Shown here: positions 10,964 through 62,281 of the stretch, in pieces
How positions within the stretch are numbered: position 1 is the stretch's first letter
Layout: the number at the start of each line of letters is the position of its first letter
Assembly: GCA_964493715.1 (NCBI GenBank)
Contig: CAZBPC010000002.1
Coordinates: 1-64,000 of the forward strand
Source: an uncultured archaeon
GTDB taxonomy: Archaea > Asgardarchaeota > Lokiarchaeia > Sigyniarchaeales > SOKP01
Reading direction: 5' to 3'
Length of the DNA stretch: 64,000 bases
Made by a program: the position numbers and the translations under genes
The notes under the pieces: generated by a model
What the model saw: the letters and a program-made list of their open reading frames with translations, nothing else
Told to the model about the DNA's origin: nothing
Databases searched by the model: none

Positions 10964-12471
10964 TTATCCCTTAACAACTCCTACTGGCACTAAACGTACG
11001 ATCTTTTCAATAATTCCAAGATCGTGGCTAACTTGAACTACTTGATCAATATCTTTATAAGCTCCTGGAGCTTCTTCAGCAACTACTTCATTCGAAGCAG
11101 CTCTTATCGAAATCCCTTGATTTTTAAGGCTATCTGTCAATTGTCGAATATTAGGAAGGTACTTTCGTTTTGCTTTAGATCTAGACATCACTCGACCTGA
11201 ACCGTGTGCTGTTGAACCAAATGAGAGATCCATAGCTTTTGGTCTTCCAACACAAAGATATGAAGCTGAACCCATGGTACCTGGAATCAACGCTGGTTGT
11301 CCAATACTTTTATAATCCTGTGACAATTCTGGATGACCTGGAGGAAAAGCTCGCGTAGCTCCTTTTCTATGTACATTTAATAAGATCTTTTTACCATCCA
11401 CTTCGTGTTCTTCTATTTTAAGGATATTATGAGCAACGCCATATATCAGCGTGAAATCTAATTCCTCAGCACTCTGTTTAAAATGTGATTGAAATGATTC
11501 TCTTAACCAATGAGTAATTAATTGCCTATTATTAAATCCAAAATTCGCAGCACAAGCCATTTGACTTAGATACATATCTGCTTCTGGTGTATTTGCAGGC
11601 ACACAAGCGAGCTCTCTATCGGGAACCTCAATCTTGTATTTTTTCATGGCTTGTTCTATAGCTCTCAACGAATCAGTACATATTTGATGACCTAAAGCTC
11701 TTGAACCTGTATGAACCATCACTGTGACTTGATTTTCTTGAAGAATTCCTAATTTCTTTGCTATATCTCTATTGAAAATTTTATCTACTTTTTGTATTTC
11801 TAAAAAATGGTTTCCACTTCCTAAAGAACCGAGTTGTTTTATACCTCTTTGCTTTGCTTTCTGTGAAACTAATTCTGCATTTGCATTTTTTAAAAAACCA
11901 TTCTCCTCACAGTGTTTTATATCTTCTTTCAAGGCATAGCCATTATCAAGTGCCCAGTTTAATCCATTATTTAGAACATCATCTAAATCTGAGAAATTTA
12001 TGTTTAATTTTCCTTTTGACCCTAATCCTGAAGGAATATTCTTGAATATTGTGTCTAATAAAGTTGGAATTTTTTTTTGAACATCTTTCATCATTAAATT
12101 CGTTCGTAGTAATCTTACACCACAGTTAATATCGTCTTTGGCATAAAAGCCTATGCTCTTATGTATCCAACGCCGCCAGGCGAAATCATACCATCTGTGG
12201 CATCCGTTCCTGCAACTCCTCCAATACAAAAACCGTATCCTTGATGAGCATCAGATAATGCGATTGCATGTTTTTGAATGCCCGGCAAACAAGCAACATT
12301 ACTTATCTGATCAAGAGTTCTATCTTGTTTAATCTTTTCCATGATATATTCATTGGCGTAAATATGTACTGGGACTTTCATTTCAAATTTTTTAATTGTC
12401 CCCTCAACTCGTGCCATCAAAGTTTGCGGTTCGATCTCATAAATATTTTCAGCAATTTTTTTTACATTCAT
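10964..12471 (-). CDS. rtcB: RNA-splicing ligase RtcB, two exons (12471-12165, 12135-10964); 492 aa after splicing
   Basis: Exon 1 has [13 protein letters not shown]...SPGGVGY; exon 2 has [39 protein letters not shown]; removing 29 nt joins them in frame. Confidence 0.93.
12136..12164 (-). other. 29-nt BHB-type intron in rtcB mRNA
   Basis: CG-TTGG-AT^A-CATAAGAG-catagg-CTTTTATG-CCAA-AG^A-CG: 4-bp helix TTGG/CCAA, two 3-nt bulges, 8-bp intron stem; canonical cuts give GGA TAC GAT ATT AAC TGT. Confidence 0.88.
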
Positions 12472-12641
12472 TATCTTCAATAATTCTACATTTATCAAAA
12501 ATTTAATTGAAAATTGAATAAATTCATTATAAAAACTTATTTATAAGGATGTTTAAATTTTTTGATTATTGAAAAAAAATTAAGATTTTAAGTAATAGCT
12601 TAATTATGGCAAGGATTAATGTACTGTGGTAAAAATCTCTT

Positions 12642-14783
12642 TTAAGTATGAATAAATATTCCAGCAGATAATCCAAAATTATTGGAATCTTCTAAACATA
12701 GATTATAGATTTTCAATGGTTCACACTCGATGATTTCAATACTAATAATTTTATGATTAATCACTTTATGACTTCTGGTCAGATGCCCTGATAATCCTCT
12801 CTGTGAGCCAAAAATTTTGTCACAAAGAGGACAAGGGAAGCAACCAACTTCTCGTACCTTATGGTCTGGGTTTTCAGGACAGTATCTTATATGAGTACTT
12901 AATCCTCCATTTCCCTTGAATAATTCATTACAAAAAGGACATGATATTAATTCATTGTGAACCTCAGCATAGTGTTTTTTTAATTCACTTGCCCCAATTA
13001 TCATTTTTCCACATTTATGACAAACCATCTTTCCATTTTTTGCCTTTTCTGATTGATTCTTCCGTCCTTTTTCACTCCTTACATATGCTTTTGAAGCTTT
13101 TTGAAATTTGTTCTGCAATTCTAACCAATGAGGTGGATGAGTGTTTTTATAATGCTCAATCATTTCCGCTCTGCCATAAACCAATTGACCACATATCTTA
13201 CATATCATTTTGCCTTGTTTTCCTATTTCGGAGGACTTTTTCCGCCCCTTTTCACTTTTATTATATTTTACCAAATACTCTTTACCCCTTTTCCCAGCAG
13301 CCCTCGTCATATCATAAAAGGCTTCTGATTTTATATAATCACTTATATTTTTCGATGCTCTTTTTGAGTGTCTTTTTTGAAATTGCGGATCTCGATGTAA
13401 CTTTCTTATATTCTCTGAAGCCATTTCAGAATAGAAATCTGGATATAATTTATGTGCTCTCCCCCATCCAATTTCCCCTTTTACTGCTCTTTCACTGGCG
13501 AATTTACTATGGATTTCAAAATGCTCTTTAAAAAATGTTCTCCTGATATTAGAGGGATTATTATTATATTTATCGAAATCGATATGATGCCTTATTTTCC
13601 CCATATCTTTTGTATAAACATTATCCCTAATATTGTAATCATCAGCTAAATTATGTATATAATCATACGTTCCTGTTCTCGGATTATAGACAACCAGATA
13701 ATCTTCTAATTTTAATCGCTTATCTTTATAAGATCTGTTAGCTACGGATATATCTTTAGCATAATAAATTTTTAAAGGCATTAATGAATCTTCATTATGC
13801 AAATGAACAACTTCAATTAATTTATTATTCCTGTTTATAAAAGCACAATTATAATCACAATATATTATGGTAGAATCATCCAAGGTAATTTTTATTAATT
13901 TTGATACATCTCTAATTCTTTTTATTTTTTCTATTTTTGAAATAACAATATTAGAGTATCGATCTAATGAAAAACAATACAATTCATTCCCTAAATTACA
14001 TTCTTCCATTAATTTTAAGAGAGTTAAATCACGTCCATCAGCTAGGTGAATTTTACTACTTCCTATTATACCCCCTTTTCTAAAATTCCTCTTTTCCTGT
14101 ATATTATTAATGGTGCTGGACATTTTTGATTGAATTTTGTTAAAATCATAAGTATTTAAATCCCTAAATATCATTGCTTCAAATTTATCAATCAATCCCT
14201 TATTCCATAATTCAGAAACTAATATGAATACTTGTTTTACTAACCATCTTAGGTATATTATGAATCTCTGGCGAAAGATTGGGTACAATTTTACCTTATT
14301 GTGTATTTTTGTTAAATTAGAATAAAAATCTGCCAGGGTTATCTCATTTAATTTATCCAAAAAATCTTCTTCAACATCATTATGTAAAATAGGCATTAGA
14401 GCCCCCGATAATAAATTAAGCAATTTCACATCAAGCTCTACATTATCGAATTTCTTATCTAAAGTTTTTTCAAGATACCTAATATTGAAATAGATCATAC
14501 GGGCAAGAACAAGTGTTAAATTGTCGATGAATCCAATCTGAATATCATGATCTTCGGCAATAATCTCAACAGGGTGTTCAATAGAATTGAGAGTAGTTTC
14601 GGAATTATTTTCTTCTGTATTATCCAAATTAGTGAGATTGATTTTATCCAACTTGCTTCCACAACGCTCGCAAAAATGTATCTTATCCTCATAGCCAGAT
14701 ATTTCTCTTATCTGATTATTTAAAATGCGCCATTCACAATTAGGGCAACTATAATAGTAAAGTCGACTATTGTCTACTACCAT
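12642..14783 (-). CDS. Zn-ribbon protein fused to a C-terminal degenerate intein (Hint) containing an HNH endonuclease and C2H2-type zinc fingers
   Basis: N-terminal CPNC..CERC; intein-like GIIGSSKIHLADGR ... NHKIISIE...NNFGLSAGIFIHT*; HHIDFDKYNNNPSNI HNH; four CxxC-x12-H-x3/4-H/C fingers. Confidence 0.8.
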   Translation of the reverse strand: MVVDNSRLYYYSCPNCEWRILNNQIREISGYEDKIHFCERCGSKLDKINLTNLDNTEENNSETTLNSIEHPVEIIAEDHDIQIGFIDNLTLVLARMIYFNIRYLEKTLDKKFDNVELDVKLLNLLSGALMPILHNDVEEDFLDKLNEITLADFYSNLTKIHNKVKLYPIFRQRFIIYLRWLVKQVFILVSELWNKGLIDKFEAMIFRDLNTYDFNKIQSKMSSTINNIQEKRNFRKGGIIGSSKIHLADGRDLTLLKLMEECNLGNELYCFSLDRYSNIVISKIEKIKRIRDVSKLIKITLDDSTIIYCDYNCAFINRNNKLIEVVHLHNEDSLMPLKIYYAKDISVANRSYKDKRLKLEDYLVVYNPRTGTYDYIHNLADDYNIRDNVYTKDMGKIRHHIDFDKYNNNPSNIRRTFFKEHFEIHSKFASERAVKGEIGWGRAHKLYPDFYSEMASENIRKLHRDPQFQKRHSKRASKNISDYIKSEAFYDMTRAAGKRGKEYLVKYNKSEKGRKKSSEIGKQGKMICKICGQLVYGRAEMIEHYKNTHPPHWLELQNKFQKASKAYVRSEKGRKNQSEKAKNGKMVCHKCGKMIIGASELKKHYAEVHNELISCPFCNELFKGNGGLSTHIRYCPENPDHKVREVGCFPCPLCDKIFGSQRGLSGHLTRSHKVINHKIISIEIIECEPLKIYNLCLEDSNNFGLSAGIFIHT

Positions 14784-14963
14784 TAAAAATCATTTATTTT
14801 TTTATGCAAATTTGTAGTATTATTTCACCCTCTCTTTAAAAAGGAAAATTTTTTATTCATAAAATAAATTTTTTGTTTATTAAATTGAAGAATCTCAATT
14901 TATAACAAGGTATTAAATATCATCCTTAAATCACGTTAAAAAAAGAAAAATCAAAAATAACAA

Positions 14964-15698
14964 TCATTTAATATCAATAAATTTCAGTAAACCCAAATCA
15001 TCCAAGTCATCAATAATAACCTCAATCTCAGCTTGAGGAATGCCAGCTTCCTCTGCTATATCTGAAATTGTATGAAATCCATCAGCTAAATGCGCAATCT
15101 TGTAAGCATTCTTATCCAAAAAACCCTGCGTGATAACTTGCCTAGGTAATCTCTTTGAAGTCCATTCAGGTTTCTGATGTTGTACTGTACGTAAATCTTC
15201 TTCCGAAACAACTAACCCTTTCTTAGAAATTTCTTTGCTTTTTTTTAAAAAATCTTTTTCATATATTTTCAAAATTGGAATTTTGAGGGGTACTTCTGCA
15301 ACCTTACCATTTTGTAAGATATTGTCGATGATTGCTTCAAAATCTCTAAACATTCGAACATCTCCTGACCAATTCACAAGTTTATCACCAAATTCTTCTA
15401 CGAATCTCTCGATTATGTCACTCAAGCATTTATGTGTGATTTTTGCATCATCATTCTTATCTGCGGCTGCCGTACAGAGAATTCCAGCTTTAAAAACTAA
15501 TAACAAGTAAAAAACCTGCATATCTATGATTTTTAATTCACCTGATCCCTTCGAGAATTCGACGCTAAAATCTTTAAGGGCAGTTAAAAAACCCGAAACC
15601 AAATCTTGGTTAAATTCTATATTTCCATAACTTCGATGGACAAGACATATTCCCGAATATTGGTGTATCAGATATAGGTTATGAAGAACTTTAGGCAC
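14964..15698 (-). CDS. Longin-like domain plus C-terminal winged-helix protein
   Basis: LYLIHQYSGICLV...DLVSGFLTALKDFSVE...F...W.GD pattern typical of Asgard longin-like proteins; C-terminal HTH. Confidence 0.65.
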   Translation of the reverse strand: MPKVLHNLYLIHQYSGICLVHRSYGNIEFNQDLVSGFLTALKDFSVEFSKGSGELKIIDMQVFYLLLVFKAGILCTAAADKNDDAKITHKCLSDIIERFVEEFGDKLVNWSGDVRMFRDFEAIIDNILQNGKVAEVPLKIPILKIYEKDFLKKSKEISKKGLVVSEEDLRTVQHQKPEWTSKRLPRQVITQGFLDKNAYKIAHLADGFHTISDIAEEAGIPQAEIEVIIDDLDDLGLLKFIDIK

Positions 15699-15963
15699 CT
15701 CCTAATTCAAATATTGCGCTCTTATTACAGAAGCAAGACTTCAATTAATTGTTTTAATATTAATAATATTACCAATATTTATAATTTCTGAATTAAAAAA
15801 TTTGCTGAATATAATATTATTTCCATTTTAAATTAGCGTTGTTGAATTATTAATTTTTTCCCTTCAGCTTCTTTTATTCTGTAGGGTGATAAATTTAAGA
15901 TATTATCAATTCATTTTTCTAAAACGTATGAATATTAATTTCTAAAATATTGTTTAATACTCT

Positions 15964-16131
15964 TCATAGAGGATATGCAAAATCGACACATAATTCTTTA
16001 CACATTATTATCAAAGCACCAAACTCTGTAATCCCTTCAATCACTCTCTTCTTTCCCAATACATACTCTTTAATTTCATTTCTGGTTAATCCAGTTTCTT
16101 CAATTATTGCCCTCAAGATTCTTTCATTCAA
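15964..16131 (-). CDS. 55-aa helical protein resembling the N-terminal domain of archaeal RPA/OB-fold proteins (not in ORF track)
   Basis: TTG start after AGGTG SD-like sequence; MNERILRAIIEETGLTRNEIKEYVLGKKRVIEGITEFGALIIMCKELCVDFAYPL. Confidence 0.6.
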   Translation of the reverse strand: MNERILRAIIEETGLTRNEIKEYVLGKKRVIEGITEFGALIIMCKELCVDFAYPL

Positions 16132-16225
16132 TTAATCTCAACACCTGCTGCTTAAACTTTGAATTCGGATTGAATTAATATCCAGAATTAATTATTTAAA
16201 CTCCGATTAAATTTTAAAGTCTAAA

Positions 16226-16960
16226 TTAAAATTTGAACCATCTACTATCATTTTTTAACGTTTCATATTCATTTAGATCTCCAAAATCTCCATAGAAGTG
16301 ATCTTTACTCATTTTGAATACTCGAACTTGCCAGTTAAGATACTTGATTCCAAATCTTATAGTTTCAGGAATTTCAATTTCACCCCTAGCAGATGGTTTT
16401 TGTTTCTTTAATATATTAAATATCTTTTTTGAAAGTATAAATATCCCCGCATTGTTTAGATTCGTTGAAGATGTTCCTTTAGGTGGTTTTTCAATAATTT
16501 CTGAACAATATTGATTATTTAAGTATATAGCGGCACCCTTATAGGGATCATCAACTAAATTCCCCACTAAAATGAAATCTGGGTTTTCTTTTCTATAAAT
16601 TTCGATTATTTCTTTATAAACTTCATATGAAACAAGCGTATCTCCCCATGTTAAGAAAAAGACAGAGTTATCAATAAACTTTTCACATAAAAGGACAGCT
16701 TCACCTGTTCCATTTAACTCCTTCTGTTCTATATAGGATATCTTTATTCCCCAATTACGACCATCTTGAAAATAATCGATAATTTGCTCTTTACGATATC
16801 CAACAACTAGTATGAAATCAAGAATTCCCGCTCTTTTTATACCTTCAATAATGAATTCTAATACTGGTTTACCCCTAAATGGTATCATTGTCTTTTGATA
16901 ATCATCCGTATAGGGTTTCATACGCTTTCCAAAACCAGCACAAAGTATAATTGCCTTCAA
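16226..16960 (-). CDS. Sugar-phosphate nucleotidyltransferase
   Basis: KAIILCAGFGKRMKP, EQKELNGTG, IIEKP, RGEIE. Confidence 0.9.
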   Translation of the reverse strand: MKAIILCAGFGKRMKPYTDDYQKTMIPFRGKPVLEFIIEGIKRAGILDFILVVGYRKEQIIDYFQDGRNWGIKISYIEQKELNGTGEAVLLCEKFIDNSVFFLTWGDTLVSYEVYKEIIEIYRKENPDFILVGNLVDDPYKGAAIYLNNQYCSEIIEKPPKGTSSTNLNNAGIFILSKKIFNILKKQKPSARGEIEIPETIRFGIKYLNWQVRVFKMSKDHFYGDFGDLNEYETLKNDSRWFKF

Positions 16961-16973
16961 AAATCATTCCCCT

Positions 16974-17921
16974 TTATGTATAATTAAATAACTTGAATAT
17001 CCAAGCTTTTCCACCAGCATCTCTTATAGATTTTGCAACTTCTTCTTGTTTTCCCGGACATAGTGCGATCATACACCCTCCTCCTCCCGCACCCATTTGT
17101 TTCGCTCCTAATGCTCCCGCTTTCCTTGAAACCTGACATAATTCTTTAATTTTTTGAGTATCTGCTTTCAAGATGGCTTCTTGGTCTTGTTGAGTATTCA
17201 TTAATAACCCTAATTTTTGAAAATCCCCTCTTAGCAATGCTTCTTTTCCTTCATTTACACATTTTTCAATGATATTAAACGCTTTTATTGTTCCGGGTTC
17301 TTCCTTTTTAATTTGAATTTTTATCCTATTTAAAATAGAACTAGCCTTTCTTTCTTCAAGGGAATCGCCTATCACCATTGGTAATTCTTTAATATCTATT
17401 CTCTCAACTGTTGTATTAGCATCCGTATGAATAAAACTTACTCCTCCATGAGCTATGCTATATTGATCCATTCTACCACATTGGATACCTAATTCGTGAT
17501 TTTCTCCCCAGAAAGCAATTTCAGCAATATCATTATTTCGTAATCCCAAACTATATGCTCTATTCATTACCTTAAGGAACCCTACTGATATAGCTGCTGA
17601 TGTTGATAACCCACGACCTATAGGAATATTAGAATTTACTTCCAAATAAAATCCCGTATTAATCTTTTCATTCAATCGTTCATATAAAACACTCCAATAA
17701 GAAAGATCTTTATTTCGGGGAGGAGTATCTCCTAATTGAAATTCTATTTTTTCTTTAGTATTGTGACTATAAAATGTAATTGATGAGTTATCACATTTTA
17801 TAAAATTGAAATTCATCATTAAATCGATTGTTGCTGCGATCACGGGTTTCTCCATTAAATCAACTTTATCCCCTAAAATACAAATGCGACCAGGTATTGA
17901 AATAGAGAATTTATCCGACAT
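16974..17921 (-). CDS. GHMP kinase (mevalonate/galactokinase-like)
   Basis: PGRICILGD, PIGRGLSTSAA, GAKQMGAGGGG; likely start is the ATG at 17921. Confidence 0.85.
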   Translation of the reverse strand: MSDKFSISIPGRICILGDKVDLMEKPVIAATIDLMMNFNFIKCDNSSITFYSHNTKEKIEFQLGDTPPRNKDLSYWSVLYERLNEKINTGFYLEVNSNIPIGRGLSTSAAISVGFLKVMNRAYSLGLRNNDIAEIAFWGENHELGIQCGRMDQYSIAHGGVSFIHTDANTTVERIDIKELPMVIGDSLEERKASSILNRIKIQIKKEEPGTIKAFNIIEKCVNEGKEALLRGDFQKLGLLMNTQQDQEAILKADTQKIKELCQVSRKAGALGAKQMGAGGGGCMIALCPGKQEEVAKSIRDAGGKAWIFKLFNYT

Positions 17922-18062
17922 TTTATTGTTCAAAACGCAAGATTGCTTTTTAATTGAGATGCTAAATCTTAGGAGTAGATAAATTTTATTTAGAGAAAAA
18001 AGTTTGTATTTAAACATTCATTATCAATGATAAATCAATAAATTTGCCATTGGTGCAAAAAT

Positions 18063-18389: not shown

Positions 18390-18394
18390 TTTTA

Positions 18395-19195: not shown

Positions 19196-19196
19196 G

Positions 19197-21482: not shown

Positions 21483-21585
21483 CTTTTTACTATTAACTTA
21501 AACTTATAAATAAAAACTATTATAATATCAGTATAAATAAATGCTTTAAATTCAGATTAATAATCAAAAGAGAGGTTGAGGTATA

Positions 21586-21863: not shown

Positions 21864-22937
21864 ATGAAAATTCTGGAAAAAAATGATAAAACAGGAGAAA
21901 TAACGGTTCAAATTGAGACCTTAAACGATTTATGGAGCCTATACAATGTAATAGCAGAGAATGATCAAGTTGCTGCTCGAACACAAAGAAGAATTGTATT
22001 AAAAGAAGGATCAAAAGGAGAGCGTAAGCCAATGTACCTTAAAATTAATGTAGAAGGTGTCTCATTTCATGAATTTTCTAATCGCTTAAGGATCAAAGGT
22101 ACAATATTAGAAGGACCTGAAGATTTTGTAAGTTTTGGGACCTATCATACTTTAAATATTGAAATTGGTCAAACATTAGTTATTAAAAAGGAGAATTGGT
22201 TGAGAAGCGAAATAAAGAGATTAAATGAAAAATCTAAATTTGAAACAAATTTTAATATGATTATAGTTGCTATAGAAGCAGGTTTGGCCACAATCTCCCT
22301 CACAACAAATTTCAGCCATAAAAGAATTGCTACCATAAAAAAAAATATACCAGGAAAACGATATGAGCAAACACACAGAAATAAAGCATATGAAGAATTT
22401 TTTTTAGAAATTGAAAAAATACTTGAAGAAAATATAAAGATTAATGAAATTAATTTGATTGTTTTATGCGGACCTGGAAGCACCAGAAATCACTTTTTAA
22501 CTTATTTGAAAGAAAATGTAAAAGCACCTTACCAGAATAAAATTCAAAACTTTCATGCAAGTTCTGGGACTGAAAGTGGAATCATCGAAATTCTAAAATC
22601 TAAAAAATTAATGAGTATAAAAAATAATGTAAAAATACTACAGGAGAGTCAAAAAATAGAAGAGATCTTTACACTGTTTGACAAAAACCCTGATCTTGTC
22701 GCTATCGGCTTTGATGAGATAGATGTTGCATCGCAAAAAGGTGCAGTAAAAGAATTATTTCTTGCTGATACCCTAATTAGAGGAGCAATGAAAAATCAAA
22801 AACTACAAATTGAAAGAATAATAAGTAATGTAGAGAGATCACAAGGTATAATCCACATTATGAATAGTGAGCATCCAACTGGCCAACGTATCGATGATTT
22901 AGGTTCTCTCGTAGCAATATTAAGATATAAGGTTTAA
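21864..22937 (+). CDS. pelA: Pelota/Dom34 ribosome rescue factor
   Basis: LNDLWSL, FHEFSNRLRIKG, GTYHT, IPGKRY, LVAILRY. Confidence 0.93.
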   Translation: MKILEKNDKTGEITVQIETLNDLWSLYNVIAENDQVAARTQRRIVLKEGSKGERKPMYLKINVEGVSFHEFSNRLRIKGTILEGPEDFVSFGTYHTLNIEIGQTLVIKKENWLRSEIKRLNEKSKFETNFNMIIVAIEAGLATISLTTNFSHKRIATIKKNIPGKRYEQTHRNKAYEEFFLEIEKILEENIKINEINLIVLCGPGSTRNHFLTYLKENVKAPYQNKIQNFHASSGTESGIIEILKSKKLMSIKNNVKILQESQKIEEIFTLFDKNPDLVAIGFDEIDVASQKGAVKELFLADTLIRGAMKNQKLQIERIISNVERSQGIIHIMNSEHPTGQRIDDLGSLVAILRYKV

Positions 22938-22955
22938 TCAATAATGGTGTAATGA

Positions 22956-27516: not shown

Positions 27517-27518
27517 TT

Positions 27519-41600: not shown

Positions 41601-42605
41601 ATGGATGATATTCTTGAAAAAATAAATTTCATTTTGAAAAAAGCTAATTTTGAAACATTTTTACTTAATAATTTCTATGAAAAAAAGAATAAATTTTGTT
41701 TTGATCTGTTAGCAAAAAAGCAAGGAACTATTTTTAGTGTTAAAATATTTTCAAATATTGATAATCTTAATAAAGACTTAGTAAATGATATTAAATCACT
41801 GTCAATCTTGCTTAAATCAAAACCTTTACTGATAGGTCTTAGAAATAGATACCAAAACTTAGAGGATAATGCTCTATATATGCGATATGGATTGCCTTTT
41901 ATTTCGATTAATACATTTGAAAAAATTATAGAAAATGACGAATATCCATACATATTAGCTAGGAGAGGAGGTGGCATTATTTTCTTGGATGGGCAACTTA
42001 TGAAATTAAAAAGAGAATCTGAAGCAATCTCACGAAAGGAGCTTTCAGAGAAATTGGGTGTTACGAAAAGAACAGTTTGTGCCTATGAAAATGATAGTAT
42101 GCGGCCTTCAGAGAGTATTGCTTTAAAAATTCTTGAATTATTACATGATAATATGATCCTAAAGAGAATGAATCCATTTGGCTGGAAGATAAAATTTGAC
42201 TTTAAAGAAACCTCTATTAGTGAAGAAAAAGATTTAAACCCTTTTGAAACTCATATACATGACGTCATTGAGGATATTGGAATGTCAACATATTGGTATA
42301 GTAAAGGACCCATCCCTTTCAAATTTTCTATTTATTCCCCTTCTGAACCCCAGGTTAATGTTTATCCAATCTTTTCAGGGATCTCTGAAGAACAAAAAAA
42401 AATATCAGAAACTAATTTAAAATGCTTGAAAATATTCACAAATTTATTTCAGAAAAAAAGTCTATTAATTGTAACCAACGAAATTAAAGTAACCGATACT
42501 ATTAAGCAAAACTTTATTCCAATTGTAAAAATTAAAGACTTAGAAAAAGTAGATAACGAAGATGAATTTATTGAACTCGTCAAAGGAACGACAAACAACA
42601 TCTAA
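41601..42605 (+). CDS. Conserved archaeal HTH transcriptional regulator
   Basis: CFDLLAKK, KIFSNID, ARRGG, central HTH ELSEKLGVTKRTVCAYE. Confidence 0.85.
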   Translation: MDDILEKINFILKKANFETFLLNNFYEKKNKFCFDLLAKKQGTIFSVKIFSNIDNLNKDLVNDIKSLSILLKSKPLLIGLRNRYQNLEDNALYMRYGLPFISINTFEKIIENDEYPYILARRGGGIIFLDGQLMKLKRESEAISRKELSEKLGVTKRTVCAYENDSMRPSESIALKILELLHDNMILKRMNPFGWKIKFDFKETSISEEKDLNPFETHIHDVIEDIGMSTYWYSKGPIPFKFSIYSPSEPQVNVYPIFSGISEEQKKISETNLKCLKIFTNLFQKKSLLIVTNEIKVTDTIKQNFIPIVKIKDLEKVDNEDEFIELVKGTTNNI

Positions 42606-43296
42606 ATTGATTTGTGGATTAGATGAGGCTGGCAGAATATAATTCGTATCGAATGATATGTTAACAGGACCTGTTCTAGGCCCAATGGTTATTTGTGGTG
42701 TTTGTTTCCTCGAAGAAAATATCCAATCTCTAGAAACTTTAGGAGTGAAAGATTCAAAAAAACTAACTATAAGAAAAAGAACCGAATTATCCGCAATATT
42801 AAAATCAATTTGCTTTTCTTATCAAAATGTTATAATTTCTCCTCAAGAAATTGATGAGAGGATTTCATTGAGAATTTCATTAAACCGACTTGAAGAATTA
42901 AAAATGGCCCAAATACTGAATCATCTAAAGCCAGAGTTAGTATATATAGATGCCGCTGATGTGAGAGAAGAGCGATTTGGACGGTCTATAGCTAAATTAT
43001 TAAATTATTCACCAAAAAAAATCATTTCCAAACATAAAGCTGATGATCTTTACCCAATAGTTTCAGCTAGCTCAATTATTGCTAAAGATATGAGAGATAG
43101 ACTCATTGAAGAACTAAAAAAAAATTATGGAGATTTTGGTTCAGGATATCCCTCAGACGAACGTAGTACGACATTTCTTCGAAAGTGGATAATAGATAAT
43201 AAGAAAGCTCCACCTATTGCAAGAAAATCATGGGAAACTACGAAAAAAATAATAAGAGAAGAAATATTTAATAAGAAGATTACTGATTATGTATAG
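42562..43296 (+). CDS. rnhB: Ribonuclease HII, two exons (42562 or 42607 to 42635, and 42666-43296)
   Basis: Exon 1 ICGLDEAG(R); exon 2 GPVLGPMV, VKDSKKL, YIDAAD, HKADD, SIIAK, GSGYPSD; 30-nt insert carries an in-frame TAA. Confidence 0.92.
42636..42665 (+). other. 30-nt BHB-type intron in rnhB mRNA
   Basis: C-TGGC-AG^A-ATATaATTCG-tat-CGAATgATAT-GTTA-AC^A-G: 4-bp helix TGGC/GTTA (2 G-U), 3-nt bulges AGA/ACA; canonical cuts give GCT GGC AGA GGA CCT. Confidence 0.82.
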
Positions 43297-51534: not shown

Positions 51535-51605
51535 TAATAAATTTAAATTTTCCTACTTGATTAGTTATTGCATTATTATATTTAACATTAAAATGATGAT
51601 TTTTA

Positions 51606-54887: not shown

Positions 54888-54994
54888 GAATTTTTGCTTT
54901 ATTTATTTGAAATTTTATGAGATAACTCAAAATAATAAAAAATTTATACTTTATTTAATTAATAAAGATAATTCTACTTTGTCTAGTGATATAT

Positions 54995-55723
54995 ATGGGA
55001 AAACGAATACTTGTTCAGAGAAAAGGATACGGGCACTTGTGGGCACAATCTCCAAGTCATCGACATATGGGAGAAGTTAAATACCGATCGTTTGAGAAAG
55101 GGGAGAAAAAAATCACATTTAGTGTAACAGAATTAGTTCATTCCCCGGGAAGAGGAGCTCCATTAGCACGAATAAAATATGAAGACGGCAAGAAGGGATT
55201 GTGGTTACCCCCTGAAGGAATTTATGAAGGTCAAGAATTTATTCAATCTAAAAAAGGTTATGGCGTTCCTGTCGAAGTAGGAAATATTATCCCTCTTAAA
55301 AAAGCGCCTCTTGGAGCATTAGTGTTCAACATTGAAGGTACACCTGAAGATGGTGGAAAATTTGCTCGAGCTTCTGGAGTTTCTGCTATTGTTAGGGATA
55401 AATTAGACAATAAGGTACAATTATTATTTAGATCGAAAAAAATGCGTTGGTTTAATGATAGTTGTCTATGTACCATTGGAGTGGTAGCAGGAGGAGGAAG
55501 GACAGATAAACCATTTTTAAAAGCTGGAACCAAATTCTATGCCTATCGATCAAAGGCAAAAAAGTGGCCTATTGTGAGAGGAGTTACTATGAATGCATGT
55601 AGTCATCCTTACGGTGGAGGCGCAAAGCAATCTCCTCATAAACCAACAACAACTTCTCGTAATGCTCCTCCCGGTAGAAAGATTGGGCAGATAGCAGCAA
55701 GAAGAACAGGTCATCAAAACTAA
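54995..55723 (+). CDS. rpl2: 50S ribosomal protein L2
   Basis: MGKRILVQRKG, HSPGRGAP, VRGVTMN..HPYGGG, PPGRKIG. Confidence 0.97.
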   Translation: MGKRILVQRKGYGHLWAQSPSHRHMGEVKYRSFEKGEKKITFSVTELVHSPGRGAPLARIKYEDGKKGLWLPPEGIYEGQEFIQSKKGYGVPVEVGNIIPLKKAPLGALVFNIEGTPEDGGKFARASGVSAIVRDKLDNKVQLLFRSKKMRWFNDSCLCTIGVVAGGGRTDKPFLKAGTKFYAYRSKAKKWPIVRGVTMNACSHPYGGGAKQSPHKPTTTSRNAPPGRKIGQIAARRTGHQN

Positions 55724-55852
55724 AAATTTAATTTTCTGATTTTCTCGATGTCTTTGAATCATAATAATAAATCAATTCTGGCAAAGTCTAAAGCTATCAT
55801 TAAAAAATCTAAAATTCCTGAATTTAGACCGTAAAAATATCAAAAAAATCCC

Positions 55853-55873
55853 CTAAGATTTTTTTAATCTTAG
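55853..55873. terminator. Hairpin between convergent rpl2 and tfb
   Basis: CTAAGATT-ttttt-AATCTTAG perfect 8-bp inverted repeat. Confidence 0.35.
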
Positions 55874-55942
55874 AAAATATAAATTTAAAAATATAGCTTT
55901 AATAAAATTTAAAATTAAATAAGAAAAATTAAAAGAGAGAGT

Positions 55943-56824
55943 TTAAAAAGAAAATTCGACTGAAGTCAAAAGCTCCTTATATCTTGATCTTAGGGTAACT
56001 TCTGTCACTCCAATTATTCGTGAAATGTCTTTCTGACTAACTTTCACATTTCTTAGCTTGGAAATTAAATATATCGAACCAGCACATAGACCTTTTGGAT
56101 CCTTGCCCGAAATCGATGTTTTTCTAATAAAGTTCTGAAGCACTCGCATGGCTTCTTTCTCAACCTCAATTCCAAGACTTAAATCCGCACAATAACGAGG
56201 AATTAGTGAAACGGGGTTAATATGTGATATTTTTAAATTAAGTTCTCTTACTAAGATTTTATAACATTTTTTAACAATATTATCATTTATCGATGCTTCT
56301 TCTAATATTTCTTGAAGCGTAATAGGAACTTTCTCATCTTTACAAGCATAATAAGCGCAAGCAGCAATCATCCCATTAATTGAACGACCACGGAGTAATT
56401 GGCGTTTAAATACTTCTTTGTATAAACGTACTGCAGATTTCTTGACACGATCAGGAAAATTGAGATTTCCTCCAATTCTTTTTAGCTCAGTTATTGCCAT
56501 CAACATATTTCGTTTTTCCCATGATAAGTGAGTATTCCATTTTGCAGCTCGACGAAGATCAGGACTTTTAATTTTAGAACGATCAATTACAGTACTTAAT
56601 CCAATATCAGGCATTAAGATGGACATTGGAGAACCTGTACGTTCTTTTTTGTCTTTTTCTGATTTAGAATAAGCTCTGATCCCACTATGATTAATATCAA
56701 GACCCCTTTCAAAAATAACAAGCCCACATTGCATGCATACAGTCTCTCCTCGCTCTTCACTTGCAGTTGTGCTTCCACTACATTCTGGACATATGTTTGT
56801 TACGATATCAATCTCGACAACCAT
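55943..56824 (-). CDS. tfb: Transcription initiation factor IIB
   Basis: CPEC...CMQCG Zn ribbon, LLRGRS, GKDPKG, VTEVTLRSRYKEL. Confidence 0.96.
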   Translation of the reverse strand: MVVEIDIVTNICPECSGSTTASEERGETVCMQCGLVIFERGLDINHSGIRAYSKSEKDKKERTGSPMSILMPDIGLSTVIDRSKIKSPDLRRAAKWNTHLSWEKRNMLMAITELKRIGGNLNFPDRVKKSAVRLYKEVFKRQLLRGRSINGMIAACAYYACKDEKVPITLQEILEEASINDNIVKKCYKILVRELNLKISHINPVSLIPRYCADLSLGIEVEKEAMRVLQNFIRKTSISGKDPKGLCAGSIYLISKLRNVKVSQKDISRIIGVTEVTLRSRYKELLTSVEFSF

Positions 56825-57459
56825 TTTTTTTACCCTTTTATAATTCTTTTACAATAATATATTTAAAATTCTTGTTTGTCCCGTGTTAAATTGGGATAAC
56901 AAAAATTAAATGTTTACACACAACAATTTTTTTGTTATGATACAAATATTATGCTTTTGTATTTAAATCTTGTGATTTGAATTTGAAAATTGTGGCGATC
57001 TATATCCCATTGATAGGCAGTTATCTATATTTATTTACTTTTTTGATAATTTTTATTTTTATAACAAAATAAATATAATCACATATGTTTTTATAAAAAA
57101 TATAATTTTTAGTGTGCCATCCATACTAAAAAAATGATATATTATGTTAGTGATAATTTTCATAGGACCATAGGGCCTTCTATTCCACACGAAAAAAAAT
57201 TCTATTTTAATTGTGGGTTAAGAAGAAAAAAAGATACTAGAAAATAAAAAAACTTGACTTAAAAGAGACTAGTCGATTTGTATTAAAAAAAATAAATTAT
57301 CATTATAGGGAAACGAAAAATTAATTATTACAACTCTAACGTAGGAGAAGAGATAAAAATAAATTTAAATAATTTATCTCTTATCATCTTTTTGAACAAA
57401 AAAAAAAAATGTGGTAAAAAACCTTTGTTCGAATGACTCTCTTATCAGGTGAAATTTAA

Positions 57460-58497
57460 ATTATAAAAAAGGCTCCAAATTCCAAAGAAGAAGCAAATGA
57501 GCCCGAAAAAGGGGATGAAAAAGAGCAAAAGGTTTCTGATAAATCTTCAGAATCAAAAGATGAGGATTCAAATGATGACAATCGTCCTCATTTCACAGAA
57601 GAACAAATAGAAAATCTTGACTTGGAAAGTGAAATGCTAAAATTTTATATGCGTATGTATGAAGATGAGACTGATAGATATGCAATTTGGAGAAATACGA
57701 TAACGGAGGGTTTTAAAAGATGGCTAAAAGGAGAAAAGATCTACATGCGCGACAAAGAAAGAATCTCGCTATACGTGTCTGAAGAAACGAAATTAGAATG
57801 GCAAGATTTTCTCAATCAAAATAAAGATGATTATAGTTCATTTTCAAAACTCATTCGAGAAAGTGTTAAAACATTCATCGAAGATTCACTTAGAAATAGT
57901 GATGATATTTCAAGAATTGATACTAATACAATTGCAAACATATCTCATGCATTGAAAGAACCTTTAACATCAATAAAAGGATATTCTCAACTCCTTCTTG
58001 AAAGCAAGGAATATGAAGATAAACTCACTGATATCGTGAAAGATACTATCAAGAATATTTTTGATCAAAGTAATATCCTCGAAAACAAAATTAAAGACTT
58101 TTTGGATAATATAAAAGTCCAAGCTAATCATATTGATGTTCTTTTAATTGAAGATGATCTACCAACAATTCGATTAATAACTAAAATCATTGAAAGTAGG
58201 GGTTATGTATGCAAGGGAGTTATTAGCGGTTCAAAAGGATTAGAAGAATTAGGAAGAACTTCTCCAAAGGTAATCTTATTAGACATTATTTTGCCTGATC
58301 TTAGTGGATATGATATATGTAAAACAATCAAGTCTGATAACGAATGGAATCAAATTCCCGTATATTTCTTAACAGCTATTTCTGGATCTGAAGTCAGAAA
58401 ACACCTGAATGAAACAAAAGCAGATGGTTATGTTCTCAAACCTTTCAATTTTTCTGATTTTGAAGTCATTTTTGATATTTTAAATGGTGAAGCCTAA
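57460..58497 (+). CDS. RHH-HisKA-receiver regulator, paralog 1 (start probably ATT 57460; ORF track gives 57622)
   Basis: RISLYVS...SKLIRESV (RHH-like), SHALKEPLTSIKG (HisKA), IEDD...LLDIILP...KPF (REC). Confidence 0.85.
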   Translation: MIKKAPNSKEEANEPEKGDEKEQKVSDKSSESKDEDSNDDNRPHFTEEQIENLDLESEMLKFYMRMYEDETDRYAIWRNTITEGFKRWLKGEKIYMRDKERISLYVSEETKLEWQDFLNQNKDDYSSFSKLIRESVKTFIEDSLRNSDDISRIDTNTIANISHALKEPLTSIKGYSQLLLESKEYEDKLTDIVKDTIKNIFDQSNILENKIKDFLDNIKVQANHIDVLLIEDDLPTIRLITKIIESRGYVCKGVISGSKGLEELGRTSPKVILLDIILPDLSGYDICKTIKSDNEWNQIPVYFLTAISGSEVRKHLNETKADGYVLKPFNFSDFEVIFDILNGEA

Positions 58498-58541
58498 CTT
58501 AAAATTTTTGTAAAAAATTTTATATAAAAAGCACAAATTTG

Positions 58542-58553
58542 TTGTTATAACAA
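58542..58553. promoter_or_regulatory. Palindrome TTGTTATAACAA, candidate operator
   Basis: Perfect 12-bp palindrome upstream of paralog 2; near-matches at 56891, 56932 and 57056. Confidence 0.4.
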
Positions 58554-58611
58554 GATCTAATTTTTTGCACAATAACACAATTACTTTTAAACATTATTAG
58601 GTGATTAGGCT

Positions 58612-59556
58612 ATTAAAAAAGGAGAGAAAGATGCTAAAGAGGAATTTTACGATTCTCCTCATTTGAGCGATGATGAGATTGAAAAATTAGATTTGAATAG
58701 CGATAAAGCGAAAGATTTAATGAGAAAGTATCAAAAATCTTTTGATAAATATGCAATTTGGAGAGATTCAATAACTGAAGGCTTTAAGAAATGGCTTAAA
58801 GGAGAAAAAATATATGATCGAGATAAAGAGCGAATTTCTCTTTATGTATCAGAAGAGATGAAAAATGATTGGCAAGATTTTATAAAAGAAAACAACTACA
58901 CTATCTCAAAATTAATAAGAGAGAGCGTAGATTTCTTTATAAATAAAAAATTAAGAAGATTCAATGGAGATGTTCTTAAAACGGAGAGTCAAGCAATTTC
59001 TAACATATCACATGCACTCAAAGAACCGTTAACTTCTATTAAAGGCTTTTCACAATTATTGATTGAAAATTATAAGGATGATTTAAATGAAGATGTTTTT
59101 AACACCATTCAAAACATATTTGAACAATCTCAACTCTTAGAGAATAAAATCGTAAATATCCTTGATAATATCAAAACCGAAAAAACTCAATATGATATTT
59201 TGTTGATTGAAGATGATCAAGCAACTATTCGACTCCTCACGAGTTATTTCGAGAGCAAGGGATTTAATTGCCAAGGTGTTGTTAGCGGTACTAAAGGGTT
59301 GGAAGAATTGAATAACAATATTCCCAAAGTTATCTTATTGGATATAATTCTTCCCGATTACAGTGGGTATGAAATTTGTAAGATAATAAAATCCAATAAC
59401 AAGCTAAAAGATATAAAGATTTTTTTATTGACCGCCATCCCTGGTTATGAAGTAAAAAAACACATGGAAGAAACTAAAGCTGATGGGTACATCCTAAAAC
59501 CCTTTGATTTCTCTGACTTCGAGATTCTTTTCGATTACCTCAAAAAGGATGAATAA
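58612..59556 (+). CDS. RHH-HisKA-receiver regulator, paralog 2 (start probably ATT 58612; ORF track gives 58663)
   Basis: Same architecture, highly similar to paralog 1. Confidence 0.85.
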   Translation: MKKGEKDAKEEFYDSPHLSDDEIEKLDLNSDKAKDLMRKYQKSFDKYAIWRDSITEGFKKWLKGEKIYDRDKERISLYVSEEMKNDWQDFIKENNYTISKLIRESVDFFINKKLRRFNGDVLKTESQAISNISHALKEPLTSIKGFSQLLIENYKDDLNEDVFNTIQNIFEQSQLLENKIVNILDNIKTEKTQYDILLIEDDQATIRLLTSYFESKGFNCQGVVSGTKGLEELNNNIPKVILLDIILPDYSGYEICKIIKSNNKLKDIKIFLLTAIPGYEVKKHMEETKADGYILKPFDFSDFEILFDYLKKDE

Positions 59557-59588
59557 TTGAAAATATCACTGGGATTTATATAAGAGAA

Positions 59589-59695
59589 TGGCGGGCTATG
59601 AGGGAATTTCGCAATCATCCTATTCGGACGAATCTATCGAACCCCCGACCCCCCGGTTAAGAGCCGGATGCGCTACCTAGCTGCGCCAATAGCCC
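59589..59695 (-). tRNA. tRNA-Lys(CTT) with 30-nt intron in the T-loop (59606-59635); CCA genome-encoded
   Basis: GGGCTAT/ATAGCCC-G-CCA acceptor; CCGG-CT-CTT-AA-CCGG; TTCG/CGAA helix with 3-nt bulges restores the TTCGATT loop. Confidence 0.93.
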
Positions 59696-59733
59696 TGATT
59701 TTATATATTTTTTTACTACACCATTAATCAAAA

Positions 59734-59834
59734 CGCAGACGGAGGGATTCGAACCCCCGAGCGCTCACGCGCACCGGTTTACTCGAATATGAAAACACTC
59801 AAGACCGGCGTCTTACCAACTAGGCTACGTCTGC
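59734..59834 (-). tRNA. tRNA-Ser(TGA) with 18-nt canonical 37/38 intron (59780-59797)
   Basis: GCAGACG/CGTCTGC-G acceptor; CCGGT-CT-TGA; long variable arm GCGC-gtga-GCGC; helix CTTG/CGAG. Confidence 0.93.
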
Positions 59835-60094
59835 GTGTTTGAGATAATAAATGGTGTTGATACTTAATCATGAATAATTAAGTTAAATTAGATTATATTC
59901 AATTAAATAAATTTTTTTTTATTTTATCTTCATTTTTTCCTCGAAAAAAATTAAGATGTAATTTCTCTGACCGAATGTGCATTACTTGCACCATTTATAT
60001 CAATAAGGCACAAGACTGAGAGAGATTTACGAATTTCATGAGTAGAACCAAATTTTTCGTAAAATATAAATTTTGTTGTATATTAGAATACTAC

Positions 60095-60577
60095 ATGAGT
60101 GCCGCTAAAGACTTTAGATATTTAATTCCTCAAAAAATATTTGATGAAATAACAAAAAAAGCCACAGAAGCATATCCTAATGTCGAACATTATTGGATAT
60201 TTGCAGATCGCAAGGAGAATTTTGGTATTGTGACTAAATTCATTCCGAACCCTGACTTGAAAAAATCTAGAACTCATATGAAGCCTAGAAGTTGGATGCG
60301 ATACAAAAAATCTAAAATCTATAACATGCGTAAATTTAAGCAAGAATTAGGTGTTGATATTGTTTGGCAAGCTCATACACATCCCTCTGGTAACGAAAAA
60401 CTCCACCAAATCGATAAAAGAATACTTAAATACCTTTCTAATGGAGTGATGATTGTGGTAATACCTGAAATCCCAGATCAGAATTTAAAAGGAAATCTAA
60501 TTGGCTGGTATTATGATAAGCGGTATACAAAAAAACCCATAATTGAGCGCATGACATTTGAGATCATATCCGAATAA
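60095..60577 (+). CDS. JAB/MPN-domain protein
   Basis: AYPNVE...AHTHPSG.....ID JAMM-like motif (Ser replaced by His). Confidence 0.75.
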   Translation: MSAAKDFRYLIPQKIFDEITKKATEAYPNVEHYWIFADRKENFGIVTKFIPNPDLKKSRTHMKPRSWMRYKKSKIYNMRKFKQELGVDIVWQAHTHPSGNEKLHQIDKRILKYLSNGVMIVVIPEIPDQNLKGNLIGWYYDKRYTKKPIIERMTFEIISE

Positions 60578-60784
60578 TTTGTGAATCAATTTTACTCTTT
60601 AAAATCTATCAAAAAATTATAATCAATTTCGACGTGTTTCAATTAACTCCAAATGATTATGAATGATATTTTCCCTATTTCTTATTTTTCTTTACCACTT
60701 AATTGGGAGACGTTTTAGTAGTTATTTATAAGTTTACGATAATTACTGTAAAAATAATTATTTTATTTATGAAAAGTAATAACA

Positions 60785-61987
60785 ATGGAACAATCTACAG
60801 AAATATTGAATGTAAATTCGAAACAAGAAAATAAAATTACCTCTTTTTTCCAAGTTGATGTTCTGAAAACAATAATGATTTTTCTTGTGATTTTTGATCA
60901 TACCATTCCGTGGGATATAAAAAATCACTTAGGAGTGGCTCTCTGGGAAAGGATCTCCATTCCCGTGTTTTTGGTCATAATGGGGTTTAACATGGGTCTT
61001 TCATTTCAAAAGAAAAAAAACCAGTCTTTAAAGCAGCTTTATTCCTGGAAATACTTTCGGCACAAAATTATACGCTATGTCTTACCATTTCTTCTCCTAT
61101 ATCTTATTTCTTCCATAATTGGAGGATTATTTTATGGACCAAGTCTTCATAATATAGCAACTGGACAGTGGGGTACAAGTTGGGATGATCGTCACTTGTT
61201 CATAGGAATATTGCCCTTTTGGGGACCGGGTAATTGGTTCATACCAGTGATTTTTGGAAGTATTATCATTATGCCTTTAATTTATAAAGGATTCTCAGGA
61301 TCGACATTCAGGGCAACTATTTCTTTAATTATATGTTTTTTAATTGAATTTAGCCTGCAATTATTTGTCTATTATGCATTGAAAAATCCTAACCCACCTC
61401 CAACATTTATTACGTGGGATGATTATTATAATTATCTTATCATAGCTTGTAGTATATTTTTTTATCTTTCAGCAATTGGTTTAGGAATGTGGTTTTCCCA
61501 GAACCATAATATTTTTAATGTTCATAACTGGTTTATGTGGGTGCTATTTCCCTTGAGTCTAGCCTATCTCATAGCATACCAATTTTTTGATTTTAGGTTT
61601 AGGAATGAAAATGGAGTTTCTTTTATATCTGGTGATTATAATTTCTTAGTCTTTCCTTATTCAGCTTTCTTGGTTTTAATCGCATTGAAGCTGTTACCTC
61701 ACGAATCTAAGAATTGGTTTTCAAAGGGGATAAAAATGATAAGCAGATCAACTTATCACATCTTATTAACACAAATATTGTATTTTGCTATTGTAGTAGC
61801 ATTGTATGGAGATCATTATAGAGCAAGTATCATTGGAATTAACCCTGATCAAGATATAGTTGCGTTTTTATATCTCATAATAAATTGGGTCATTTGTATT
61901 CCGATTGGAGTATTTTGGTGGTATGTAGAGACGAAATTAAAAAATATTATTAGCACAAAAATCATACTCAAAAGAAACCTAAAATAA
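60785..61987 (+). CDS. Membrane acyltransferase (acyltransferase-3/OafA family)
   Basis: DVLK..MIFLVIFDH, IPVFLVIMG, WFI, TYHILLTQ; multi-TM. Confidence 0.85.
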   Translation: MEQSTEILNVNSKQENKITSFFQVDVLKTIMIFLVIFDHTIPWDIKNHLGVALWERISIPVFLVIMGFNMGLSFQKKKNQSLKQLYSWKYFRHKIIRYVLPFLLLYLISSIIGGLFYGPSLHNIATGQWGTSWDDRHLFIGILPFWGPGNWFIPVIFGSIIIMPLIYKGFSGSTFRATISLIICFLIEFSLQLFVYYALKNPNPPPTFITWDDYYNYLIIACSIFFYLSAIGLGMWFSQNHNIFNVHNWFMWVLFPLSLAYLIAYQFFDFRFRNENGVSFISGDYNFLVFPYSAFLVLIALKLLPHESKNWFSKGIKMISRSTYHILLTQILYFAIVVALYGDHYRASIIGINPDQDIVAFLYLIINWVICIPIGVFWWYVETKLKNIISTKIILKRNLK

Positions 61988-62078
61988 ATTCTTTTTTTAT
62001 TTTTTTTTACATAAATTGGTCTACAATTCACAATAAAAAAGTATTAAAAATTTAAAACGTTATATAATTATATAAAAA

Positions 62079-62159
62079 GCAATCGTCGCCTAGTGGTATG
62101 GCGCTGGTCTGCTAAACCGGTGTCCGACGGACTCGTGGGTTCGATCCCCACCGATTGCG
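62079..62159 (+). tRNA. tRNA-Ser(GCT)
   Basis: GCAATCG/CGATTGC-G acceptor; CTGGT-CT-GCT-AA-ACCGG; variable arm GTCC-gac-GGAC. Confidence 0.95.
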
Positions 62160-62178
62160 TTTATATGATAAAAACATC

Positions 62179-62281
62179 GGGCCAGTGGTCTAGTGGCTAT
62201 AAATCGTGAGATCTTCTTATAATTGATTAGGACGCCACGCTTACACCGTGGATATCGGGAGTTCGAACCTCTCCTGGCCCA
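62179..62281 (+). tRNA. tRNA-Val(TAC) with ~30-31-nt intron in the D-loop (approx. 62197-62230)
   Basis: GGGCCAG/CTGGCCC-A acceptor; CCACG-CT-TAC-AC-CGTGG; AT-rich hairpin insert within the D-arm; exact junction ambiguous. Confidence 0.9.

Follow-up and report, generated by a model that had tools for sequence, protein, structure and literature searches.

According to the accessible text of a 2023 review, endonuclease-dependent splicing of mRNA has been described in archaea for 'at least two archaeal genes', cbf5 and HVO_1309 (PMC10485636). The intron in the cbf5 pre-mRNA occurs in Desulfurococcales and Sulfolobales (Watanabe 2002, Yoshinari 2006 and Yokobori 2009), and its splicing was confirmed by cDNA, as stated in the available part of PMC2738675. 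As for the enzyme, the portion of PMC5829648 consulted describes a lysine of the K44 type as conferring broad specificity on the tRNA splicing endonuclease, EndA, and the L1 loop as conserved in TACK and Asgard archaea. Here we describe introns of the bulge-helix-bulge (BHB) form in a stretch of 64,000 nt, called the window below (positions 1 to 64,000 of contig CAZBPC010000002.1), and in further genes of the same genome, which belongs to an uncultured Asgard (Promethearchaeota) archaeon. With high probability, tRNA genes and protein genes of this organism alike are interrupted by BHB introns of one size class (29-33 nt, mode 30).

The genome, coded G000, measures 3.68 Mb in 160 contigs and was scored 100% complete; the window is G000:C2:1-64000, with a GC content of about 30%. 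According to the BHB rule used throughout, a central helix joins four bases of the exon to four that are close to the intron's 3′ end, each strand has a bulge of 3 nt, and cleavage occurs behind the second base of each bulge. The original prediction, made from the letters of the window, had proposed five BHB-like introns in the 64 kb, and all five were found at or near the places where it had put them. In form, the inserts in rtcB, rnhB and the genes for tRNA-Lys, tRNA-Val and tRNA-Ser(UGA) are BHB introns (lengths in Table 1). Excision at the canonical BHB cuts restores the expected frame and motif exactly in both protein genes, namely GGVGY↓DINCG in rtcB and DEAGR↓GP in rnhB, where the arrow marks the junction. 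The outer helix between the exons has 2 bp in rtcB and 1 bp in rnhB, and the motifs of both are therefore of the relaxed type.

In the window, the Pfam RtcB profile is split over two frames, with one open reading frame (ORF) at 12151-12498 that matches profile positions 1-47 and another at 10964-12229 that matches positions 48-426. A whole-genome family search for RtcB returned just these two pieces, indicating that there is a single rtcB gene in the genome. Its start codon is uncertain, either TTG 12498 or the in-frame ATG 12471. For comparison, 30 rtcB loci were collected from this genome and 40 relatives (coded G001, G015, G023 and so on), 29 of them readable and one broken by the end of a contig. 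The insert occupies the same site in two of the 29 readable loci (G000 and G001), and the remaining 27 are continuous at the junction. Between these two genomes, the insert differs by one base, located in a bulge, and RtcB exon 2 is 92% identical over 389 amino acids (aa), with no other lesion. A set of 80 named loci (coded L200, L213 and so on), mostly labelled as metagenome-assembled genomes (MAGs) of Promethearchaeota archaeon, and which may overlap with the first set, included 78 readable and two incomplete loci; here a homologous insert was found in three (L200, L213 and L221) and a continuous gene in 75. When the five rtcB introns are compared, all four stem substitutions preserve a pair. 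Furthermore, a DNA contig of 400 nt (X16 record 7), obtained from a sediment sample of a different year, runs across the rtcB intron without a gap and differs from it at two positions, being the only record that bridges the intron with at least 31 letters on either side. The joined, intron-free form of rtcB was not seen in four DNA runs (window 10400-13000).

Like rtcB, the rnhB gene is interrupted at a site where relatives are continuous. A 30-nt insert is present at the same site in nine of 24 loci of the same genus, and the other 15, as well as all six loci from the same order, are continuous at DEAGR↓GP (in total, 9/30 with the insert and 21/30 without). The nine inserts represent diverged sequence types. 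When they are aligned, all cells of the central helix (100%) are paired, although three of its four pairs vary; over 13 pairs, 92.3% of cells pair, as opposed to 27-41% when the register is slid by 1-3, and three pairs have changed on both sides. This level of pairing was reached by 13 of 500 shuffles, a count that overstates the support because it comes from few sequences (8 distinct ones) that are related to one another; the covariation is thus supportive, not decisive. Across genomes whose proteins are 54-89% identical, the rnhB insert persists at the same site, with the base pairing maintained. The start of rnhB is uncertain (ATG 42562 or TTG 42607). The mechanically called RNase HII ORF (42658-43296) opens at an ATG within the intron and matches Pfam RNase_HII only from position 8; an annotator would call this ORF an N-terminally truncated RNase HII without the DEAGR catalytic motif.

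The original prediction had also expected that more genes of this genome, apparently frameshifted or truncated, would carry introns, and a homology screen bore this out. The bait was G032, a single-contig genome from the same order and another family, of which 2.4 Mb (55%) was used. Its 3247 stop-to-stop ORFs of at least 80 aa were searched by tblastn against G000; 1311 of them gave matches, which covered about 1096 segments and 1.06 Mb of G000 at 80 bits or more. The patterns sought were consecutive high-scoring segment pairs (HSPs) in different frames and stop-bearing insertions within one HSP. The screen recovered both controls, rtcB and rnhB, and added nine inserts, 30-33 nt long and distributed over eight other genes, whose functions were taken from Pfam matches of the intact G032 homologues (Table 1). 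For rtcB, rnhB, leuS and psmA, excision in silico yields the continuous sequence of intron-free relatives, and for the other inserts it yields a product that matches the G032 homologue.

Some of these inserts recur in related genomes. The 30-nt insert in leuS was found at one site in three of the 31 sequences examined (G000, G023 and G042), 28 being continuous. At the psmA site GG↓IRPFG, a frameshifting insert of 31 nt in G000 has as its counterpart a stop-bearing insert of 30 nt in G015 (L323), and in G044 the match table shows psmA broken at that query position as well. In the match table alone, additional genomes show an internal stop in the region of the leuS insert, and the N-terminal region of leuS in G009 forms one match with three internal stops (one TGA and two TAG), which may correspond to several introns. 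The gene called thiolase A (C28:22068-23316) contains, besides its two 30-nt introns, probably a third break at about 22406-22480.

The reciprocal screen, in which 3386 ORFs of at least 120 aa from G000 were searched against the 2.4 Mb of G032, found no such insert; the order as a whole does not share the trait, and the expansion is specific to this lineage. The sole candidate in G032 (at about 2.3177 Mb) was rejected, as it consists of two overlapping genes that are fused in G000 and not of an intron.

Pairing was tallied over the 11 mRNA inserts whose ends are fixed by homology. In these, 42 of 44 central-helix positions pair and nine of the 11 helices are complete (4/4), whereas shifting the 3′ partner by 1-4 nt leaves only 14-19 of the 44 positions paired and at most one complete helix (0-1/11). 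The chance of obtaining at least eight complete helices among 11, based on composition, is about 9e-8. Nine of the 11 inserts have the strict BHB form, and the relaxed ones are thiolase A site 1 (three of four pairs) and psmA (three of four pairs plus a 5′ bulge of 4 nt). The inner segment folds as a hairpin in all 11 minimum free energy structures, and its outermost bases close in eight of them; in psmA the hairpin closes at one end only, and in abh and thlB it closes 1-2 bases in from both ends. Despite their near-identical length and design, the introns were predicted to be unrelated in sequence, and so they are. For the 13 introns compared, G000 contains a single full-length copy of each, and the best pairwise local score between them is 10, against a 99th percentile of 11 for shuffled sequences. 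Group I and group II introns were considered and rejected, as inserts of 29-33 nt hold no ribozyme core of hundreds of bases, and Rfam at its gathering threshold over the window reported only two tRNAs. Mobile insertions of the miniature inverted-repeat transposable element (MITE) or insertion sequence (IS) type were rejected as well, as the genome has no multiple related copies.

The ~30-nt BHB design of the mRNA inserts is, in silico, shared with many tRNA introns, again as had been proposed. In the tRNA search, every BHB-compatible block in GC-rich stretches was removed in silico and ARAGORN was run again. Before excision, ARAGORN and Rfam together saw three tRNA loci of the window and missed tRNA-Val. 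All three tRNA introns of the window have the strict BHB form, and the excised tRNAs are recognised by ARAGORN. For the tRNA-Ser(UGA) locus, the label Thr(tgt), which ARAGORN gave directly in its intron search, was rejected because the long variable arm fits Ser. Genome-wide, ARAGORN reported 16 tRNAs without the intron search and 27 with it, and the 12 tRNA introns that it placed at the canonical position measure 11, 13, 17, 17, 18, 21, 29, 29, 30, 30, 38 and 39 nt. After BHB excision, the best intron was of 28-31 nt in 11 of 24 tRNA clusters, several of the other clusters being weak and uncurated. From these lengths, the mode near 30 nt is real for tRNA introns too. One locus on contig C34 (at about 29.2 kb) received conflicting ARAGORN calls after excision (Asp, Thr and 'Pyl' cta) and is an uncurated candidate for a tRNA with several introns.

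The host encodes two EndA genes, one interrupted rtcB and an archease beside rtcB. Both EndA genes (C5:37733-38356 and C58:18440-19057 in G000) were identified by PF01974. The first, EndA alpha (207 aa), aligns over its full length with the catalytic subunit of Aeropyrum pernix EndA (3p1z_B, E 1e-36), retains the catalytic Tyr, His and Lys, and has a loop lysine that aligns with K44 of the A. pernix enzyme (SKPR, compared with EKPR in 3p1z_B). The second (205 aa) has a Ser where the EndA of Methanocaldococcus jannaschii has the catalytic His. The pair fits a broad-specificity (alpha-beta)2 enzyme; the original prediction had postulated a broad-specificity EndA and asked for its subunit type, which looks like the two-subunit one with the loop lysine kept.

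In the mechanism that we propose, the four exon bases directly upstream of the 5′ splice site would pair, in the primary transcript, with four bases close to the 3′ end of the intron to form a central helix of 4 bp. Beside this helix the remaining intron would fold as a hairpin (about 23 nt), so that a bulge of 3 nt stays on either strand. Cleavage, two bases into each bulge, would be the work of the splicing endonuclease, probably a heterotetramer of the catalytic EndA, with its loop lysine, and the non-catalytic paralogue. RtcB, aided by the neighbouring archease, would then join the ends carrying a 2′,3′-cyclic phosphate and a 5′-OH. The intact conserved motif would be encoded by the spliced mRNA only, since the unspliced one meets a stop or a frameshift, and the organism probably must splice many mRNAs before translation. 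Because the only rtcB gene is itself interrupted, a feedback is predicted in which ligase is needed to make ligase, and new enzyme would depend on that already present in the cell.

Several points weigh against splicing as the explanation, or limit its extent. All 24 listed sequencing runs that hold the organism are DNA metagenomes, with no RNA run among them. In most mRNA inserts the outer helix between the exons is weak (0-4 bp), the rnhB covariation comes from the few related sequences mentioned above, and the helices with three of four pairs and the 4-nt bulge of psmA would need an enzyme of relaxed specificity. Moreover, genome scans that started from structure (4-bp helix, bulges, inner stem and merged frames) gave no clear excess over shifted cuts, with 1470 hits for the true cut and 1424-1481 for cuts shifted by 1-2 nt, or 55 and 31-45, respectively, at the strictest setting. 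These scans give no total because junctions between neighbouring genes swamp the signal, and they missed rnhB because its first exon is short; the intron total accordingly comes from the homology screen, whose reach was about 1.06 Mb of G000 and which is biased towards conserved flanks.

If left in place, every insert introduces a stop or shifts the frame. Close relatives differ in whether they carry the inserts, and removal of the inserts is not seen in RNA, as the listed runs are all DNA. These facts would also be expected if the inserts were disabling insertions, that is, decaying pseudogenes or scars of mobile elements in genes that are dead or truncated. However, such a view would have to accept the loss of the sole rtcB gene of a genome whose completeness was scored at 100%, as well as of the LeuRS gene, for which only weaker, paralogue-like matches exist elsewhere in G000. 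It is also at odds with flanking exons that are open and conserved, as illustrated by RtcB exon 2 of G000 and G001, and with the persistence of paired, same-site inserts over the range of protein divergence given above. Nor does it account for inserts that are each single-copy and no more alike than shuffled sequences, or for insert ends that coincide with BHB cut sites far above chance, and it is very unlikely. An assembly or sequencing artefact might be suspected in a MAG of 160 contigs, in which two other apparent splits (C105 at about 6041-6155 and C28 at about 3613-3727) were rejected as scaffold gaps of N runs with duplicated flanks. Nevertheless, the same inserts are present in independently assembled genomes (five for rtcB, nine for rnhB and three for leuS), which excludes an assembly error, and the contig from another sample spans the rtcB insert; the probability of this explanation is negligible.

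Ribosomes are known to skip short stretches of mRNA in phage T4 gene 60 and at the 'byp' elements of yeast mitochondria, where matching take-off and landing codons are needed. The inserts resemble such bypass elements in being short hairpins, many of them with a stop directly behind the take-off site, and translational bypassing could thus replace RNA splicing. Yet, by eye, the codon preceding each insert differs from the one with which the insert ends (e.g., AGA and ACA in rnhB), bypassing does not need the exact BHB geometry, and inserts of the same size and design are found in tRNA genes, which are not translated, making this alternative highly improbable, even more so than gene decay. The original prediction had gone further in suggesting that the mRNA introns mark a splicing-controlled regulon of RNA-processing genes. 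RtcB, RNase HII and LeuRS do act on RNA, and the rtcB intron makes the synthesis of ligase ligase-dependent, but these three are the only ones among the ten intron-bearing genes. Pfam gives no function on RNA for the other seven, namely those for an alpha/beta hydrolase, NAD synthase, the alpha subunit of the proteasome, a GTPase of the Ras type, two thiolases and an unnamed protein, and the proposed regulon is not supported; since the introns are polymorphic within the genus, any control exerted by them would be dispensable, and a regulon is unlikely. Splicing of BHB introns by the EndA pair and RtcB is the explanation retained below.

Table 1. Interrupted genes and their neighbours: positions in the window, or contig and positions in G000 for inserts outside it. 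An arrow marks the cut in a bulge or the junction in the protein.
Feature	Position	Strand	Length	Details
Archease gene (RtcB activator family)	10511..10963	+		Pfam Archease E 1.6e-41; convergent with rtcB and abutting it
rtcB exon 1	12165..12498	-		Pfam RtcB profile 1-47; ends with GGVG and the first 2 nt of the Tyr codon
rtcB intron	12136..12164	-	29 nt	BHB: helix UUGG/CCAA, bulges AU↓A and AG↓A, 9-bp inner hairpin
rtcB exon 2	10964..12135	-		Pfam RtcB profile 48-426; last nt of the Tyr codon, then DINCGV; includes the stop
rnhB exon 1	42562..42635	+		From sequence and alignment to intron-free relatives; ends with GLDEAG and 2 nt of the Arg codon
rnhB intron	42636..42665	+	30 nt	In-frame TAA; BHB helix UGGC/GUUA, bulges AG↓A and AC↓A, 23-nt inner hairpin
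rnhB exon 2	42666..43296	+		RNase HII from GPVLGP on; Pfam RNase_HII profile 8-199
tRNA-Lys(CUU)	59589..59694	-		Encoded CCA; ARAGORN Lys ctt after in-silico excision
tRNA-Lys(CUU) intron	59635-59606	-	30 nt	T-loop, after position 59/60; helix UUCG/CGAA, bulges AU↓A and AU↓U
tRNA-Ser(UGA)	59734..59834	-		Rfam tRNA 45.9 bits; ARAGORN Ser(tga), 85 nt, after excision
tRNA-Ser(UGA) intron	59797-59780	-	18 nt	Position 37/38; helix CUUG/CGAG, outer helix 7 bp
tRNA-Ser(GCU)	62079..62159	+		No intron; ARAGORN, Rfam
tRNA-Val(UAC)	62179..62281	+		Found only after BHB excision; missed by ARAGORN and Rfam
tRNA-Val(UAC) intron	62197-62227	+	31 nt	D-loop; helix UAGU/AUUG, bulges GG↓C and AU↓U
leuS insert	C44:26027-26056		30 nt	Junction MGYD↓SFGLPAEN
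Ras-family GTPase insert	C6:80447-80476		30 nt	Junction WDVAGQ↓PQF
NAD synthase insert	C39:8748-8777		30 nt	Junction TKYGD↓GGVD
Thiolase A insert, site 1	C28:22709-22738		30 nt	Helix 3/4 pairs
Thiolase A insert, site 2	C28:23007-23036		30 nt	Junction HDCFTI↓T
Thiolase B insert	C120:4198-4228		31 nt	After the HDCFT motif, as in thiolase A site 2
Alpha/beta hydrolase (abh) insert	C2:119236-119265		30 nt
Proteasome alpha (psmA) insert	C4:20109-20139		31 nt	Helix 3/4 pairs, 4-nt 5′ bulge
Unnamed-protein insert	C46:25402-25434		33 nt

A few further loci came to light during the screen. At C89 (about 3340-3369), a candidate insert can be read as either 30 nt or 24 nt; another on C39 (about 2986-3006) has 21 nt and a weak stem, and for two more (C3 at about 66998 and C58 at about 7625) the flanking identity is poor. 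Elsewhere on C89 (1026-2388), there is a +1 frame switch without an insert, which could be a frameshift, a pseudogene or a sequencing error. Single in-frame stops occur within good alignments on C17 (about 47.8-48.0 kb) and C20 (about 21.4-22.9 kb), one of them opposite a Cys, and such stops, along with a tRNA-SeC call on C26, suggest selenoprotein genes. The single frame of 802 aa on C38 of G000 corresponds to the two overlapping genes of G032 (about 2,315,744-2,318,136), and its product is presumably a heterodisulfide reductase A joined to an MvhD-like part, judging from its cysteine motifs.

Taken together, these observations lead us to a broader view, towards which we lean only slightly: that one Asgard genus hosts proliferating, uniform BHB mini-introns of about 30 nt in both tRNA and protein genes. 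Their frequency would be about one insert per 100 homology-covered segments, plausibly tens per genome; they would lie within highly conserved catalytic motifs, be polymorphic between close relatives and interrupt the sole ligase gene. The result would be an obligatory, genome-wide splicing of mRNA by protein enzymes, with a ligase loop that depends on itself. This genome would raise the number of BHB-spliced protein genes from two to at least ten in one organism, with a single design shared with tRNA introns. Gene callers will report such essential genes as truncated or frameshifted, and for this reason the gene content and completeness of Asgard genomes will be misjudged. The polymorphism within the genus, along with diverged introns at the same sites, offers a natural system for studying the gain and loss of non-spliceosomal introns, and one that lies in the closest prokaryotic relatives of eukaryotes. 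Obligatory mRNA splicing would also pose the question of how a cell with no known nucleus avoids translating its unspliced transcripts. If splicing takes place as proposed, the cell must either prevent ribosomes from reading unspliced mRNA or put up with truncated products, a difficulty commonly cited in connection with the origin of the nucleus and which would here arise in the lineage closest to eukaryotes.

How far this departs from what has been described can be judged from the nearest systems. BHB introns in mRNA are known as such; their scale, uniform length and host, as found here, are not in the literature searched. The full-text literature searched, in which subscription journals and supplements are poorly covered, yielded no account of BHB introns in protein-coding genes of Asgard archaea. 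The 2026 preprint on Asgard tRNA introns (bioRxiv 10.64898/2026.10.13.758758), in the part available, likewise describes BHB introns, heavily interrupted genes, many of which annotators miss, above all in the D-arm, repeated gain and two EndA paralogues as a common feature. It deals with tRNA genes only, its main text contains the word 'mRNA' 0 times, and its focal groups are Freyr-, Jordi- and Atabeyarchaeaceae.

With respect to the enzyme, the EndA pair resembles the crenarchaeal (alpha-beta)2 EndA (PDB 3p1z/3ajv and 2zyz; PMC5829648, in its accessible part) in the catalytic residues, the K44 lysine and a second paralogue without the catalytic His, with the likeness here drawn from sequence. 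The eukaryotic RTCB-dependent splicing of XBP1/HAC1, like the 'SOS splicing' of transposons, also involves structure-triggered excision from mRNA and ligation of the RtcB type. However, those systems operate in eukaryotic cells, with different endonucleases and recognition rules.

The two archaeal mRNAs are likewise among the closest counterparts. Like the introns described here, the HVO_1309 mRNA of Haloferax volcanii undergoes BHB processing by the tRNA splicing endonuclease, although, in the accessible text of PMC10485636, that case is a single euryarchaeal gene with a homodimeric (alpha2-type) enzyme and no size class. The cbf5 intron is similar too, as the available part of PMC2738675 places one in the codon of a catalytic residue, links it to a hetero-oligomeric EndA, and reports an often relaxed motif and its loss in some lineages. 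Nonetheless, cbf5 is one gene of thermophilic Crenarchaeota, with introns of 33, 36 and 39 bp according to the same text, whereas the introns reported here, known from DNA alone, affect at least ten genes of an Asgard archaeon from a mesophilic habitat, measure 29-33 nt, a size shared with its tRNA introns, and interrupt the gene of the ligase itself.

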